This document shows positions 12,901-41,591 of a stretch of 64,000 nucleotides of DNA, in pieces; the first letter of the stretch is position 1, and each line of letters opens with the position of its first letter. Position numbers and translations under genes: made by a program. The notes under the pieces were generated by a model. The model did not search any database. It had not been told where the DNA came from and was given only the letters and a program-made list of their open reading frames with translations. The DNA is from Candidatus Poribacteria bacterium (lineage in GTDB: Bacteria > Poribacteria > WGA-4E > WGA-3G), in NCBI GenBank assembly GCA_028818705.1, contig JAPPNJ010000194.1:10909-74908 (forward strand), read 5' to 3'.

Positions 12901-13893
12901 ATGAGTTTTCAAATCTACCGCCAGTTTCGTGTAAATATCTTGTTAGTACTCATCTTTTTCTTGTTGGGTGCGCCACTGATCAGTAACGCCGATGAAGCGG
13001 AGTCGCCTAATCAAAAACTGATGGTTATCTTCCCTGAAGCGAAGAAATTCGTTCTGAGAAGTCCTATACTTACGCCGAACCAAATTGCTGCAATTGAGAG
13101 AGAATTTGGTGCTGAACTTCGGGCGGAGGATCAGAAACCGGTATTCTATATTCCTATTAGTGACAGTAAAAAGCCTATGGGATTGGTGTTGTTCACGAAT
13201 GCTGCGGGACCGGGCGGTGTTATTGAAGGTGCCGTTGGACTGGATATGAGGGGGAAAGTCGTGAAGGTGGAGGTCTATGCGCACAAGGAATCAGACGCGA
13301 TTACACAAGCAGATTTTCTCAAGCAATTCATTGGTATGGGTGTAGACAACGCTTTCAAAGTTGGTATAGACGTTGAAACTATTGGCGGGGAGGAAGCTGC
13401 TTCAAACGCCGTCGCTCTGATTCCAAAAAAGACGTTGGTGATGAGTTATGCCCTGTTTCTGAAAAAGAAGCCGAAATTGGATGGAGAAAAAACACGAGCA
13501 TCTGATACACCAGAGCTCGATATTCCAGAGGAAGAGATGCCTGATGTCGAAGACCTTAAGGCACTGATGATGTTGATGATAGATGACTATTTCGTTGTCG
13601 TTGATTACTTCGATGACAAAGAGAGCAAGACGAATGCTGTCGAAGCGTCAAAACGGCTCGCCAGATATGCAAAGAGCATCTCAAACTTCGAGCCTCCAAA
13701 AAACGCAGATCAGACTGAGGAGTATGTCTACTTGCAAAGCAAGTTTAGTGAAGCTCTTCTTAAATTCGCTGCAGCACTTGAGAAAGAAGGTATTTCTGAC
13801 GAAACACGCGAGCAGTGGGACAGTATTGTTACCTTAATCAATCAGTCACACCTCCGATTTAGCGAGGAGGAGATTGATCTGGACACGTATTAG
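12901..13893 (+). CDS. Secreted FMN-binding-domain protein with an acidic linker and a helical C-terminal domain
   Basis: It has a signal peptide and a block resembling the FMN_bind domain of RnfG/NosR-type proteins (GLVLFTNAAGPGGVIEGAVGLDMRGKVVKVEVYAHKES). The C-terminal part is unassigned. Confidence 0.5.
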   Translation: MSFQIYRQFRVNILLVLIFFLLGAPLISNADEAESPNQKLMVIFPEAKKFVLRSPILTPNQIAAIEREFGAELRAEDQKPVFYIPISDSKKPMGLVLFTNAAGPGGVIEGAVGLDMRGKVVKVEVYAHKESDAITQADFLKQFIGMGVDNAFKVGIDVETIGGEEAASNAVALIPKKTLVMSYALFLKKKPKLDGEKTRASDTPELDIPEEEMPDVEDLKALMMLMIDDYFVVVDYFDDKESKTNAVEASKRLARYAKSISNFEPPKNADQTEEYVYLQSKFSEALLKFAAALEKEGISDETREQWDSIVTLINQSHLRFSEEEIDLDTY

Positions 13894-37432: not shown

Positions 37433-39565
37433 TCATTTCCGAATCAGCATCCGCCGAGTTGCCACAAATTCACCTGCCGTTAACGCATAAAAATAAATAC
37501 CGCTCGACACAGACTCACCGAGTGCATTCTTACCATCCCAATATGCGGCGCGACTGCGATTCACATAATTCCCCGCATTCTGATGTCCTAAATCTAACTT
37601 TCTGACCACCTGTCCGTCCGCAGCATAAATGGTAATTGCAACGTTCGCGGGCAGCCCAAGTTGATAAGGTATCCATGTCTCTGGATTGAAAGGATTTGGG
37701 TAGTTTTCCAAAAGCAGCGTTTTTGTAGGAACCACAGGACCAAATAACAAGTTAAACACGGCAATGCCTCTATTCACAACCGTATTGGGCAGAACAGCAT
37801 AAGCCTTCTGCCAGTCTTCGCTGTTCAAAATGGATCGGTGAGCGTTTGGTAGTGGTGGAGCTCCGTCGATTGGTGGCATACCTTGTGTAATTAGAATAAT
37901 ATCCTTAATATCGACAATACCGTCCCTATTGACATCCGGGTTCGGGTGCGGATTACCGGCAATCTTTTCGCCGTATCTGGATGCGACAATTACCAGATCG
38001 ACTATATTCACAAATCCATCGTTGTTGACATCTGTATAGTTGTTGAATTCGGTAATAAGAGGTTTGCGATGCAACAAATGTGCATTTGCGATAATAAAAT
38101 GATCACACCCATTACCATCACCAGCATCGGTTACATTAATAATGAGTGTTCTGGTACCCGCCGGAATATCGAATGAGATATTTATATTTTTTGCTTGAGC
38201 ACCTCTCAATACACCAGAATTATAGATCTCCGCACCGTCAGCGAGACATATAAATTCAACAGAGGCGATACTTCCGCATGGATTCGGCATGTAGAAAAAA
38301 GCATCAAATTTGGCATAGTCCCTACCTTCCAGATCGTAAACAATACGGCTTACAGCATGGGCATAAGACCAGTAGTCCCATTGGTGATCTAATAAGTGCT
38401 TATACCCCGCACGTATAGGATCCATAAAACCGTTTGGTTTTCTTGGCATCAGACCATCAGGTGTTTTTTCCCACGTTAGACGTTCCTGCCAACCCGCCCA
38501 TTCTGTAGACGGATTTGTCGGAATTAGCGCATCGGGACTATCATAAGTTAACGTTAGATACGTTTCTGTTCTGTCTGTGTTAATTGTTTTTGTTTCGGTT
38601 GTTTTCGTTGCACTGAGAGTCCAACTTTTTCCTGATACATTTCCATTCTGGTCAACAACACGGATATAGACGTTATTAACTGGGGCTATCGTTGCCCCGG
38701 TTGGCATATCAAATTTAACTGTTGTGTTTTGTATATTGTTAAAATTTTGGCAACTCATTAAACTTGTTGCTTCACCGGGAATAGAAAGTAAAAATTGAAC
38801 TTGATGAATACTATTCGCATCGCTAACACTGAACCGGAGCGTCCAGTTTTCTTCATTGGCCGGGTAAGTCAATGGCGTTAGCATTTGAATCGTAGCCAAT
38901 GCGTTTGCAATGTTACCGGCATTTCCGCCCTGGTTGAAAAATGGGTTGACATTCAACATTGATGCTGCACATGCTGATAATTGTTCTCGTGCGGCACCAT
39001 AAGACATTATATATGCATCATCACGGAAATCGTGTTCCAGGTTTAAAGCGTGCCCAAGCTCATGTGCTATCAAATCCACACCGTGGTCCCCTTGAACACA
39101 ATCGCCAGTCGCAGGAACCATCATGGGTCCGCCATCAAAGGGTGCTATACCGCAGTTCCCCTGAATCCGCTCTGTGCTGACATCTACAATAACGATATAG
39201 ATATCTTTCTCTATATCATATTGATCATCAATTTCATCAGTAATTTTGCTGAGTGTATCTGTGTGGTAATACGCGTCATTAAAATTTCCAGTAACAGGAT
39301 ACACAATTAACTTTCCACCAGCGTCGTTTTCAAGGTTAAAAGTTTTTCTGCTGTATCCATGTGCTTCCATCTGCTCCGCGTAAAAGCGTTGTACCGCTTT
39401 TATCTGTGTATCGAGTGCAGCTGGTATATTCCATTGGAACGGACGATCACGTGGTACAAAGTATACAACTTTCACCATTCGATTTGCTGCTGCAGTAGGC
39501 ATATTTACGACAGTGAAAGTAAGTCCGTAAAGCAAGATGATGAAAATTAGATCAGTCTTTTTCAT
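37433..39565 (-). CDS. Secreted multidomain metzincin-like zinc protease with an NPCBM-like module, dockerin-type repeats and a T9SS-type C-terminal sorting domain
   Basis: It has a signal peptide and the zinc motif HELGHALNLEHD. An NPCBM-like block (ASVEFICLADG...NVTDAGDGNGCDH) and dockerin repeats (DVNNDGFVNIVDL, DVNRDGIVDIKDI) follow. The tail is LLENYPNPFNPETWIPYQL...SGIYFYALTAGEFVATRRMLIRK. Confidence 0.75.
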   Translation of the reverse strand: MKKTDLIFIILLYGLTFTVVNMPTAAANRMVKVVYFVPRDRPFQWNIPAALDTQIKAVQRFYAEQMEAHGYSRKTFNLENDAGGKLIVYPVTGNFNDAYYHTDTLSKITDEIDDQYDIEKDIYIVIVDVSTERIQGNCGIAPFDGGPMMVPATGDCVQGDHGVDLIAHELGHALNLEHDFRDDAYIMSYGAAREQLSACAASMLNVNPFFNQGGNAGNIANALATIQMLTPLTYPANEENWTLRFSVSDANSIHQVQFLLSIPGEATSLMSCQNFNNIQNTTVKFDMPTGATIAPVNNVYIRVVDQNGNVSGKSWTLSATKTTETKTINTDRTETYLTLTYDSPDALIPTNPSTEWAGWQERLTWEKTPDGLMPRKPNGFMDPIRAGYKHLLDHQWDYWSYAHAVSRIVYDLEGRDYAKFDAFFYMPNPCGSIASVEFICLADGAEIYNSGVLRGAQAKNINISFDIPAGTRTLIINVTDAGDGNGCDHFIIANAHLLHRKPLITEFNNYTDVNNDGFVNIVDLVIVASRYGEKIAGNPHPNPDVNRDGIVDIKDIILITQGMPPIDGAPPLPNAHRSILNSEDWQKAYAVLPNTVVNRGIAVFNLLFGPVVPTKTLLLENYPNPFNPETWIPYQLGLPANVAITIYAADGQVVRKLDLGHQNAGNYVNRSRAAYWDGKNALGESVSSGIYFYALTAGEFVATRRMLIRK

Positions 39566-39637
39566 ACCTTAGATCTCCGAAACCTGAAATCACAACTATG
39601 GTGAATTCTAAAAATAAGTTTACACTTCAGGAGTTCT

Positions 39638-39663
39638 TGTAGGAGGGATTTCCTAATCCCGAC
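39638..39663 (+). repeat. Dispersed ~25-nt repeat TGTAGGAGGGATTTCCTAATCCCGAC
   Basis: A second copy lies in reverse orientation at 62838-62861 (GTAGGAGGGCTTCCGAATCCCGAC after reverse-complementing). Confidence 0.7.
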
Positions 39664-39738
39664 TTCTTCTATCTCCCATCTGTGAGGTAAAAATAATTCT
39701 AATATCTACTATAAATACCATTCGTTAGGCAATATCCT

Positions 39739-40917
39739 CTAATGGATTATTTGGCTGAGACTAAGAAGTCGATATTTCGTTTTAGTTATTTCACTTGTAG
39801 TTTTGCTTCTTTCAGTGACTTCTTGAATTTCTGCAGTGTATTCTCGGTTCAATGTTGCGTTTCTCACAGTTTTCAAGGCTTCATAGGCAATGTGTCCTTT
39901 ATAGGTTTTTTTCCGAGTTTTTATTTCAAATGTTTTAGGTCTTAAAAAGGCACCTATTAAAGTACCAGTGATAGTGAATGTTGATAAATTTTCTTCATGA
40001 GATTTTTCAAGAATTTCGATCGCCTCTCGCATTTTGAAGGCGGATAAATATGCTGTTCCACCTTGATTTGGGTTTGGTGATACCCATTCAAATTCGGTGT
40101 CCGTTACAGAGCCATTGAGTGATTTGAGGAAATCAATATAATTTTTTGCCACCTTTGATTTTGGTGCCAGAAGTTCTTTAAGTTGTTCATAATTATCTCC
40201 TGCTTTAAGAAGCTTAAGGAATTCTTCGATTGCTTTCCCACAATAAGAATAGCCCTGAAGATCAAGTTGAGTGATTTCTGTAGAGGCAACTTGAATGACG
40301 AATGATCCCGTACCAACATCTGATAGCGACATCTGCATTTTACGCTTTACATCTTTTATACGCTCTGACTTAAGGAAGGTCATTCCAATTGTATCAATTA
40401 CACCTTGGAGTTTTCCGAGAATATTGCTTAGGATGGCTATAGGTGCTTGAGTTTTAGGACCTTCGGCAAAGTTGAGAGTTAGGTTCAGAATTTCTTGATT
40501 TTCGGATTTTGGTATTTTTTCTACATTGCTGGGCACTGGGAGTATTTCGGTTTCAAAATCAAGACATTCACCGGACACTGGAAGCATATCCTCAGGTATC
40601 TGGCTTGAGTAAGTAAAATCTGTTTGAACTGAAGTTTCTTCCTCGTATGGAACCCTTACTTGAATTGCATGCGGATTTTCAGAATTGACGAAGGCATCAT
40701 GGAGGTCAATTTTGCCAGATCGGATGAGGTTAAGTCGTTCAATAGAGACTGCAACACAGAGCCAAGTTAGAAATTGGTCATCTTCAGCAGCAGCCACAAC
40801 AAGGTAAAAATGCCCTGAGGCGTTTTTGCAGGAGTAAAGAACAGGTTGGTCATAGTATTCGTATACTTCTACAATCTCGAGTTTGCCTAGCTCTGGAATG
40901 TTGAGTATGTCAAGCAT
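39739..40917 (-). CDS. Hypothetical protein (392 aa), large component of an orphan two-gene cassette
   Basis: It is AT-rich. GGGGG lies 7 nt upstream of the ATG. No catalytic motif was recognised. Confidence 0.6.
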   Translation of the reverse strand: MLDILNIPELGKLEIVEVYEYYDQPVLYSCKNASGHFYLVVAAAEDDQFLTWLCVAVSIERLNLIRSGKIDLHDAFVNSENPHAIQVRVPYEEETSVQTDFTYSSQIPEDMLPVSGECLDFETEILPVPSNVEKIPKSENQEILNLTLNFAEGPKTQAPIAILSNILGKLQGVIDTIGMTFLKSERIKDVKRKMQMSLSDVGTGSFVIQVASTEITQLDLQGYSYCGKAIEEFLKLLKAGDNYEQLKELLAPKSKVAKNYIDFLKSLNGSVTDTEFEWVSPNPNQGGTAYLSAFKMREAIEILEKSHEENLSTFTITGTLIGAFLRPKTFEIKTRKKTYKGHIAYEALKTVRNATLNREYTAEIQEVTERSKTTSEITKTKYRLLSLSQIIH

Positions 40918-40950
40918 CTTATACCCCCTTTCTGTATTACCTTCTGCTTT

Positions 40951-41361
40951 CTATTCACTGATTACCGTAAAAACAAGCCAAGGTTCTGTTTCAATGGGTA
41001 TCCACCATGTATGATGAGATTTTTCAAATGATGGTGTATGTTGAATCACACCAAGCGTCGGATTGAGTTCACCTTTGGCTGTTTTCCTGTTTCTTAAGTG
41101 CCCTATTCTGTTCTTGAGTCGCTCAAAGAGTCGAGGAATATCTTTCGGATCAGTATAAACGGAGAGTCCACTAATTCTGATATTTGGTTCTGGAAATCTA
41201 CCCGGGAATTCTTCCCAAGTAGATAGGAAATCTTTTGCTTGTGGTGGATTGTGCTTTACAAGTCGGTAAACTGTTCCAGAAGCCGGTTTAGCTTCCGCAG
41301 GAGGACAATTTTCTGAATAAAAATCTGGCCATTGCAACTCGGTATTCCTTCCATTTCGCAT
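40951..41361 (-). CDS. Hypothetical protein (136 aa), small component of an orphan two-gene cassette
   Basis: It is AT-rich and sits 33 nt upstream of the 392-aa ORF on the same strand. No family recognised. Confidence 0.55.
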   Translation of the reverse strand: MRNGRNTELQWPDFYSENCPPAEAKPASGTVYRLVKHNPPQAKDFLSTWEEFPGRFPEPNIRISGLSVYTDPKDIPRLFERLKNRIGHLRNRKTAKGELNPTLGVIQHTPSFEKSHHTWWIPIETEPWLVFTVISE

Positions 41362-41485
41362 GCTATTGATTACCGAGTGCCGCGTTTTGTATTTTTAACA
41401 CTACGGATATTATAACATACACACATAAATTAAGTAAATATATTTGTAAGTGCTGAAAAACGTGCTTACTCTATAAATTAATTAT

Positions 41486-41514
41486 AGGATACACTGTTGT
41501 TTGGAACAAGTCAA
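41486..41514 (-). promoter_or_regulatory. Possible promoter of the two-gene cassette (TTGACT, 17-nt spacer, TATCCT with an upstream TG)
   Basis: The reverse complement of 41486-41514 reads TTGACT-TGTTCCAAACAACAGTG-TATCCT. Confidence 0.3.
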
Positions 41515-41591
41515 CTCTTTTCTATAACCTCGAAAATCTGTGAATTCTGGCTCAGATGATATTTTCACAACGCTCAAACTGCTCACCAGAC

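Follow-up and report, generated by a model that had tools for sequence, protein, structure and literature searches.

A two-gene DUF6575 cassette in a Poribacteria genome with distant homology to the anti-phage system PD-T4-10

A stretch of 64,000 nucleotides from a Candidatus Poribacteria bacterium (NCBI GenBank assembly GCA_028818705.1, contig JAPPNJ010000194.1, positions 10,909 to 74,908 of the forward strand), referred to here as the window, carries a cassette of two genes, A and B, with AT-rich spacers on both sides. A first-pass annotation made from the letters alone had described the pair as an orphan and a candidate for a previously undescribed defence or toxin–antitoxin (TA) module. 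Judged by sequence homology, the cassette is a distant relative of PD-T4-10, an anti-phage TA system of Escherichia coli. The features of the cassette, in positions of the window, are as follows.

40951..41361, minus strand: gene A, 136 aa, a PD-T4-10_A homologue with a predicted α/β fold resembling ADP-ribosyltransferases (ARTs)
40918..40950, minus strand: intergenic gap between A and B, 33 nt, with a Shine–Dalgarno-like GGGGG run at 40928-40924, 6 nt 5' of the ATG of gene B
39739..40917, minus strand: gene B, 392 aa, a Pfam DUF6575 protein
40543..40917, minus strand: N-domain of gene B (aa 1 to ~125), β-rich, containing the DUF6575 core and homologous to the N-terminus of PD-T4-10_B
39988..40542, minus strand: linker (aa ~121-137) and middle α/β domain (aa ~140-310) of gene B, as seen in the AlphaFold2 model, with a PDC-M63B match
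39739..39987, minus strand: predicted C-terminal OB fold (aa ~311-392) of gene B with the stop codon, β1-β2-β3-α-β4-β5, from the secondary structure of the model and Foldseek
41362..41591, minus strand: upstream spacer, AT-rich, GC 0.33, the presumed site of the cassette promoter
39566..39738, minus strand: downstream spacer, AT-rich, GC 0.35, with a 6-bp hairpin at 39645-39660

The two co-directional open reading frames (ORFs) on the minus strand were borne out, and all the peptide blocks quoted from them earlier were found in their translations. The gap of 33 nt was likewise correct, and the GGGGG run is present, but its distance from the start codon of gene B is 6 nt and not the 7 nt given earlier. 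Both ORFs show ratios of nonsynonymous to synonymous substitution (dN/dS) of 0.15-0.43 against orthologues, with a range of 0.18-0.47 for gene A, and this purifying selection indicates that both are real genes.

The AT-richness of the cassette relative to its flanks was confirmed when the GC content at third codon positions (GC3) and the windowed GC were computed. The two genes have GC contents of 0.386 and 0.414 and GC3 values of 0.305 and 0.292 (z = −3.8 and −4.1), which are the lowest two GC3 values in the window, where the 42 other genes have a mean of 0.479 and an sd of 0.046; the windowed GC profile agrees with a low-GC cassette. The spacers are as AT-rich as was noted, but this does not set them apart, as other intergenic regions of the window also have GC contents of 0.33-0.38.

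The cassette is an accessory insertion. In a survey anchored on the orthologous aminotransferase gene, the site was empty in 64 of the 78 assessable Poribacteria species (82%), among them the closest relative (92% identity), and at empty sites the ThiF gene often lies 10-60 nt from the aminotransferase gene. The 14 occupied sites carry a full-length form of gene B in 4 species, a short form joining the N-domain to the OB fold in 8, and the N-domain only in 2. The insert that separates these two genes in the window consists of the A/B pair together with a protease gene. The neighbours are an aminotransferase, an epimerase, a HAD hydrolase, ThiF and a secreted metalloprotease, in agreement with the earlier description of the pair as lying between housekeeping genes. 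Because the immediate neighbours are housekeeping genes, the cassette is an isolated islet; the defence-island location that had been put forward for checking was not found, and the window is not a defence island.

Relationship to known defence systems

Neither protein had been assigned by the first-pass annotation. Residues 9-179 of gene B match Pfam PF20215 (DUF6575) with E = 3.7e-31, and both proteins match the PADLOC models of PD-T4-10, so that the pair is no orphan; pairs of a DUF6575 protein and a small protein are already known as a defence system from earlier work, and the term "previously undescribed" had to be given up. The match of gene A to PD-T4-10_A is weak (residues 17-132 on model positions 23-142 of 148, E = 1.4e-4), as is that of gene B to PD-T4-10_B (residues 20-122 on positions 24-123 of 353, E = 1.9e-4). 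The same models were matched by 39 of 51 small-protein homologues (best E = 2.2e-8) and by all 45 large-protein homologues (best E = 5e-9). The remainder of gene B, residues 117-386, matches positions 37-307 of 309 in the PADLOC candidate model PDC-M63B with E = 2.4e-9, and this model was matched by 44 of the 45 large-protein homologues (best E = 8e-20). For PDC-M63A, no match was obtained from either window protein at E up to 1.

Other searches added little. NCBIfam gave nothing useful for the two proteins, PHROGs returned families of unknown function only, and when profiles of the two proteins were run against PDB sequences, no match had an E below 0.5. A match to a metabolic or structural family was found for neither protein in Pfam or NCBIfam.

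PD-T4-10 was recovered by functional selection from E. coli ECOR65 as two overlapping ORFs (Vassallo et al. 2022, PMC9519451). In that system, B, the DUF6575 protein, is toxic, A neutralises B and cannot be deleted, and the pair protects against T-even phages by abortive infection (PMC9519451). No mechanism for PD-T4-10 was found in the literature after that study. The comparison with PD-T4-10 was made through the PADLOC models PDLC04023 and PDLC04024 and through E. coli relatives; the ECOR65 record of the system is QOYX01000006, and its A and B proteins are RCO36089.1 and RCO36088.1.

In its organization, too, the cassette resembles PD-T4-10. In both cases a small A gene lies upstream of a DUF6575 B gene of ~390 aa in a co-directional, tightly coupled pair, A being homologous over its full length and B over its N-domain; the total sizes are 1623 bp in the window and 1604 bp in PD-T4-10, and both pairs are carried by mobile or accessory DNA. 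However, the window proteins match the models (E ~1e-4) too weakly for PADLOC to call the system, the C-terminal 270 aa of gene B are unmatched by the PD-T4-10_B model, and the two genes are 33 nt apart, whereas those of PD-T4-10 overlap. The host also differs, belonging to a phylum of sponge symbionts. Because the C-terminus of gene B is unmatched by PD-T4-10_B, strict membership appears to fail, and on this sequence comparison the cassette probably stands outside PD-T4-10 proper without being a categorically new system.

The second relative, PDC-M63, is a PADLOC candidate from a prophage of E. coli NILS69, whose B protein corresponds nearly end to end to residues 117-386 of gene B. The window lacks a PDC-M63A homologue, however, and PDC-M63B lacks the DUF6575 N-domain. 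The candidate is unvalidated and gave no defence against 10 phages in its native host (bioRxiv 10.1101/2024.12.20.629700).

Linkage and modular architecture

A genome scan anchored on gene A returned 71 loci from at least 8 lineages, with hosts in Poribacteria, Thermoanaerobaculia, several cyanobacteria, Anaerolineae/Chloroflexi, Dehalococcoidia, one betaproteobacterium and Desulfarculus. A gene with the DUF6575 N-domain lies downstream of every intact A gene (65 of 65), being adjacent in 64 and ~1 kb away in one, which, as seen from A, answers positively the question of co-occurrence raised by the first-pass annotation. The reverse does not hold, as 31-39% of the genes with the DUF6575 N-domain have no intact A. 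In seven distinct distant loci that were sampled (GC 0.30-0.61), A is directly upstream of B in all seven, and in at least four it overlaps the start of B by 4-11 nt, as in PD-T4-10. A profile search with the B family gave 2,903 clusters at 50% identity (E ≤ 1e-3), most of them full-length at ~390-410 aa.

Relatives of the cassette are borne on plasmids in Oscillatoria, Rhodococcus, Arthrobacter, Rahnella and Mycobacteroides. The Rahnella and E. coli pairs occupy accessory slots of lambdoid prophages, lying either between the genes for the Q antiterminator and the holin or between the lysis genes and the terminase gene. By hhalign, the small protein is related to that of the E. coli pairs with a probability of 99% and E = 9e-18, and the large protein, over its first 200-245 residues, with a probability of 99% and E from 1e-16 to 1e-18. 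These E. coli prophage pairs of a small protein and a DUF6575 protein (L110 and L111), the only E. coli pairs brought up by profile searches and searches of E. coli genomes, are divergent and match the PADLOC PD-T4-10 models weakly, which indicates that the models span a narrow slice of the superfamily. A tblastn search of a phage genome database with the large protein gave no match.

The architectures of gene B were surveyed over 80 loci anchored on DUF6575. Four forms were found: full-length proteins of 388-404 aa, proteins of 203-223 aa in which the N-domain is joined to the OB fold, the N-domain alone (124-166 aa), and fusions of ~1,780 aa to Type ISP restriction–modification (RM) enzymes. 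The fusions occur in three Poribacteria species (L062:7962-13280, L064:2086-7443 and L079:3088-8424) and comprise the DUF6575 N-domain, an Mrr nuclease, a ResIII/helicase domain, an ISP coupler, an N6 methyltransferase and the Type ISP C-terminal domain; PADLOC calls them REase_MTase. The A gene overlaps the start of the fusion gene by ~20 nt, and dN/dS among the three fusions is 0.12-0.17 (median 0.16). In at least four other loci, the cassette is directly preceded by a stand-alone Type ISP gene (L033:2598-7425, L034:68-3273, L059:89-3604 and L082:3166-7989). Such arrangements suggest that RM genes and cassettes form arrays in tandem and recombine with each other. Gene B of the window itself contains none of the Type ISP domains (Mrr nuclease, SF2 ATPase, coupler, methyltransferase and target recognition domain).

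The A gene is kept with 16 of 17 full-length B genes, with all three ISP fusions and with about half of the truncated forms, a pattern to be expected if the presence of an effector makes A necessary. The shortened forms of B have a median dN/dS of 0.22-0.26, by which the view that truncated DUF6575 genes are plain pseudogenes was rejected.

Comparison of the window with locus L020 gave dS values of 0.21 for the small protein, 0.31 for the N-domain, 0.82 for the middle domain and 0.93 for the OB fold. Among 13 full-length Poribacteria pairs, the identity of A correlates with that of the N-domain (Spearman 0.64, partial r 0.85) and not with that of the C-terminus (0.12, partial r −0.14). Because the identity of A tracks the N-domain and not the C-terminus, A and the first ~125 aa of B are read from these sequences as a unit of inheritance, to which an exchangeable C-terminus is joined by recombination.

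The C-terminal α/β and OB module also occurs without the DUF6575 N-domain, directly downstream of genes that resemble Gp49/HigB (weakly) or PIN (weakly or faintly). At L192:4673-5987, L193:516-2113 and L264:230-1715, the gene lacking the N-domain overlaps the upstream small gene by 4-35 nt, and such homologues carry differing short N-terminal segments. As the small genes upstream differ, the α/β and OB module appears to pair with several partners. A phmmer search of the PDB with the partner genes labelled Gp49 or PIN gave RelE at E = 0.4 only. A possible resemblance to antitoxins of the N-terminal segments of P0246 and P0244, two homologues of the module that lack the N-domain, was dropped, as PDB sequence searches gave it no support.

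Two known arrangements offer parallels. Panacea (PanA/DUF4065), which Kurata et al. reportedly described in 2022 as a hyperpromiscuous antitoxin domain, likewise combines one module with unrelated small partners; here the α/β and OB module is found with ART-like, PIN-like and Gp49/HigB-like proteins. However, the fold and family are different, the partner-specific part is here a separate N-terminal segment, and an antitoxin role of the module is putative. PrrC is a latent toxin held silent by the restriction enzyme EcoprrI, and in some Poribacteria the unit of A and the N-domain is similarly fused to, or adjoins, a complete Type ISP RM enzyme. By this analogy, a restriction enzyme may be coupled to a TA-like module in some Poribacteria, but the protein families are others, the enzyme is of Type ISP and not of Type Ic, and the window copy has no RM enzyme.

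Several further observations were made at the surveyed loci. Type ISP remnants are present at L024, L032, L064 and L079. A conserved protein of ~770-836 aa lies immediately upstream of DUF6575 genes of the N-domain-only form at L042:5213-7723 and also at L028, L039, L066, L072, L075, L080 and L088; it has no match in Pfam or PADLOC, and at several of these loci the A gene is absent or a fragment. This protein could be a further partner, or else the product of a defence gene that has nothing to do with the cassette. Transposase orfA genes of the IS3 type adjoin several truncated copies (L059, L063, L070, L085, L090 and L098), and two or three cassette copies of differing architecture occur in single genomes, namely OZ244821.1 (L050, L062 and L098), OZ253447.1 (L042 and L090) and OZ244563.1 (L041 and L095). 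An ATPase of the ParA/AAA_31 type, 370 aa in length, is encoded near cassettes at L071:8507-9619, L064, L065, L082 and L098. Its gene has the opposite orientation to the cassette in L082 and lies downstream on the same strand in the other four, and the protein matches PADLOC PDC-M28B weakly.

Among the distant cassettes, one in a high-GC genome (L099:4951-5573 and 12942-13187) is bordered by TA pairs with ParE toxins and by a Y1 transposase, and this copy thus sits in a small TA and mobile-element cluster. At L100:4890-6479, a DUF6575 protein of 529 aa has tandem N-domains (residues 8-130 and from ~140) followed by the C-terminal module. The contig (GCA_028285745.1) also encodes RuBisCO activase and Raf1 and is probably cyanobacterial.

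Predicted folds and possible mechanism

In gene A, the conserved positions are C19-P20, R33 (in YRLV), S67 (in GLSV) and H116 (in SHHTWW). Over deep divergence C19, P20, G65, G104, H116, W120 and F131 are invariant, and R33 and S67 are nearly so, with Tyr in place of R33 in 2 of the 23 diverse homologues compared. The AlphaFold2 model of A has a pLDDT of 89.6. Its best Foldseek matches in the PDB are weak (E 0.09-3, TM ~0.4), and the recurrent named ones are ART toxins, namely pertussis S1, EcPltA, cholera A1, RES and ParT. In BFVD, the named matches include RNA 2'-phosphotransferase (Tpt1) and rifampin ART (Arr) at E >0.4. The strand order fits the ART core, with YR33 on β1, LS67V on β2 and H116 at the start of the presumed β5, a placement derived from secondary structure without superposition. 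Among the homologues of A, the conserved catalytic Glu of the R-S-E triad was not found, H116 being at that position, and none of the 51 homologues matched the Pfam ART families. The model thus weakly predicts an ART-like fold lacking the catalytic Glu for A.

The ART-fold toxins of TA systems (RES–Xre, ParST and DarTG) and the R-S-E ARTs in general resemble A in the predicted fold and core strand order, in the Arg on β1 and the Ser on β2, in the small size and in the two-gene TA context. They differ from A in that His116 takes the place of the catalytic Glu, R33 is not invariant and A has no match to these families at the sequence level. Moreover, the A protein of PD-T4-10 is the neutraliser and not the toxin.

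In the AlphaFold2 model of gene B (pLDDT 77), the N-domain is β-rich and is followed by a disordered linker (residues 121-137), then by a middle domain of the α/β type and, at the C-terminus, by a β1-β2-β3-α-β4-β5 unit. Foldseek gave many OB-fold matches in the PDB with a probability of ~1.0 over 72-98 columns, including IF1, SSB, RPA, RMI and RuvA domain I; as the Foldseek table has no query coordinates, the OB fold was placed at the C-terminus by the order of strands and helix. A fold of M16 peptidases (insulin-degrading enzyme) was dismissed for B, the matches having a probability <0.35 and an rmsd >11 Å. In the middle domain, Q171 and G204-S205-F206 are invariant and no obvious catalytic residues are seen. 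Over the C-terminal 250 residues no conserved catalytic constellation was found, the only invariant residues being Q171 and S205, and this indicates a binding module rather than an enzyme. The C-terminal module as modelled thus probably binds nucleic acid or protein.

The earlier idea of a foreign defence or TA module made of a small and a large protein is supported by the homology to PD-T4-10, the linkage of the two genes, the accessory insertion and the association with Type ISP enzymes and prophages. The explanation that appears probable to us, with modest confidence, is that the foreign-looking cassette was acquired horizontally and acts as a two-gene abortive-infection module of the TA type against phages, belonging to the PD-T4-10/DUF6575 superfamily. 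By analogy with the E. coli system (PMC9519451), B would be toxic and A its neutraliser; the assignment of B as the toxic partner follows from the E. coli experiment and from the retention of A with full-length B genes and ISP fusions. In the proposed mechanism, A would bind the DUF6575 N-domain of B and form with it a conserved, co-inherited "safety catch", which would hold the C-terminal α/β and OB module inactive in uninfected cells. Phage infection would then disturb the complex of A and B, whether because A is lost or titrated away or in response to a phage trigger, and the freed B would arrest the cell, possibly by an OB-mediated effector activity.

Several findings weigh against this explanation. 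The matches of the window proteins to the PD-T4-10 models are weak (E ~1e-4), and that to PD-T4-10_B is confined to positions 24-123 of the 353 in the model; the last 270 aa of gene B match instead the unvalidated candidate PDC-M63B, whose system gave its native host no protection (bioRxiv 10.1101/2024.12.20.629700). Nor does the window form a defence island, and the ART-like fold predicted for A is typical of toxins. One genome (L023/L004) has an intact full-length B without A, which is unexpected if A is an essential antitoxin. Purifying selection (dN/dS ~0.22-0.26) acts on pairs of A with an N-domain-only protein and also on N-domain-only genes that have no A, something that a simple model with the toxin in the C-terminus of B does not predict. 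Lastly, where the C-terminal module occurs without the DUF6575 N-domain, it directly follows PIN-like and Gp49/HigB-like genes, which is the place of an antitoxin.

In a rival explanation the roles are reversed: the toxin would be A, with an ART fold and possibly with NAD+ as its substrate, its antitoxin would be the N-domain of B, and the α/β and OB module would be an infection sensor that releases A; in the ISP-fused case, A would be a latent backup toxin like that of PrrC and EcoprrI. The top Foldseek matches of A (ART toxins in the PDB, Tpt1 and Arr in BFVD) and the positions of YR on β1, LSV on β2 and H on β5 agree with such a role. So does the asymmetry typical of toxins and antitoxins, A never occurring alone (65/65) and 31-39% of the N-domain genes having no intact A, as well as the resemblance to minimal type II TA systems of the pairs of A and an N-only protein, which are under purifying selection. 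The antitoxin position of the C-terminal module behind PIN-like and Gp49/HigB-like genes, its lack of a conserved catalytic constellation and the intact B without A at L023 point the same way. However, in the only relative that has been tested, B alone is toxic, A neutralises it and cannot be deleted, and toxicity of A is unreported (PMC9519451). The fold matches of A are all weak (E ≥0.09, TM ~0.4), none of its 51 homologues matches a Pfam ART family, the catalytic Glu is not conserved and R33 is Tyr in 2 of 23 homologues, and the PIN and Gp49 labels of the partner genes were precomputed as "faint" or "weak", with RelE at E = 0.4 as the only phmmer match in the PDB. The reversed assignment is considered rather unlikely.

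The cassette could also be a selfish addiction module or a decaying relic that has no current anti-phage role in this host and is kept by post-segregational killing or was acquired recently. Housekeeping neighbours in place of a defence island, the frequency of truncated and A-less copies in Poribacteria with IS3-type transposases beside several of them, the presence of several copies per genome and the failure of the related candidate PDC-M63 to defend its native host are in line with this. Nevertheless, the two genes of the window are intact, purifying selection acts on them and on truncated forms as well, members of the family are repeatedly found with Type ISP RM enzymes and in accessory slots of prophages, and a homologous system defends E. 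coli (PMC9519451), so that we regard this explanation as improbable. The idea that the two genes have an ordinary metabolic, structural or regulatory role and are AT-rich by chance is effectively refuted: the pair does sit among metabolic genes, but no metabolic or structural match exists in Pfam or NCBIfam, the site is empty in 82% of species, and the homologies found are to defence and TA systems.

A wider proposal, which we put forward tentatively and consider possible rather than probable, is that A and the DUF6575 N-domain form a portable two-part control unit mounted on unrelated defence effectors, such as the OB module, which PIN-type and HigB-type TA pairs share, and complete Type ISP enzymes. 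In this unit, A would be an ART-fold protein with a Cys/His pocket; it would either act on its partner as an enzyme, as type VII antitoxins do, or be a latent toxin that is set free when phages attack the effector to which the unit is joined. If the proposal is true, it would provide the first mechanistic framework for the PD-T4-10 family and a new case of restriction enzymes wired to a TA-like switch.

The cassette and its relatives matter because PD-T4-10 is a validated anti-phage TA system whose domain annotation is limited to a DUF, and because its family is very large, extending over many phyla, including uncultivated sponge symbionts, of which the current PADLOC models detect a narrow slice. 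What is new here is the putative co-inherited core of A and the N-domain with its exchangeable C-terminal modules, among them whole Type ISP enzymes. The structural leads, an ART-like A with invariant Cys19 and His116 and a predicted OB fold at the C-terminus of B, make the mechanism of the family directly testable. In addition, the cassette is a clean example of an accessory candidate defence gene set between conserved housekeeping genes in Poribacteria.

Spacers and neighbouring genes

The spacers did not bear out the elements that had been assigned to them. The supposed dispersed repeat at 39638-39663 in the downstream spacer was rejected, as it is single in the window: the 25-mer has no second copy at ≤3 mismatches, and the 16-nt hairpin core has one further match with 3 mismatches, which is at chance level. 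Read on the coding strand, the hairpin at 39645-39660 does not have the form of a canonical terminator. Scans of the locus for Rfam families, tandem repeats and tRNAs found nothing, and an RNA antitoxin and a tRNA-linked integration site were rejected on that ground.

In the upstream spacer, the promoter noted earlier (TTGACT-17-TATCCT, 41514-41486) scores 9/12 only, and a better candidate, TTTACT-18-TGnTATAAT with an extended TG element, lies at 41438-41409 and scores 10/12. Because promoter-like sites are not enriched over shuffled sequences (5 sites against an expectation of 6.1 ± 2.3), any assignment of the cassette promoter within 41362..41591 is tentative.

The protease gene that shares the insert with the cassette (37433-39565) encodes a secreted metalloprotease of 710 aa with an NPCBM domain, a dockerin and a sorting tail of the T9SS type, and its GC3 has a z value of −2.3. 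It occupies the variable interval between the aminotransferase and ThiF genes, in which most Poribacteria have nothing or an SDR gene. A version of the same metalloprotease of 1,037 aa is encoded at L002/L021.

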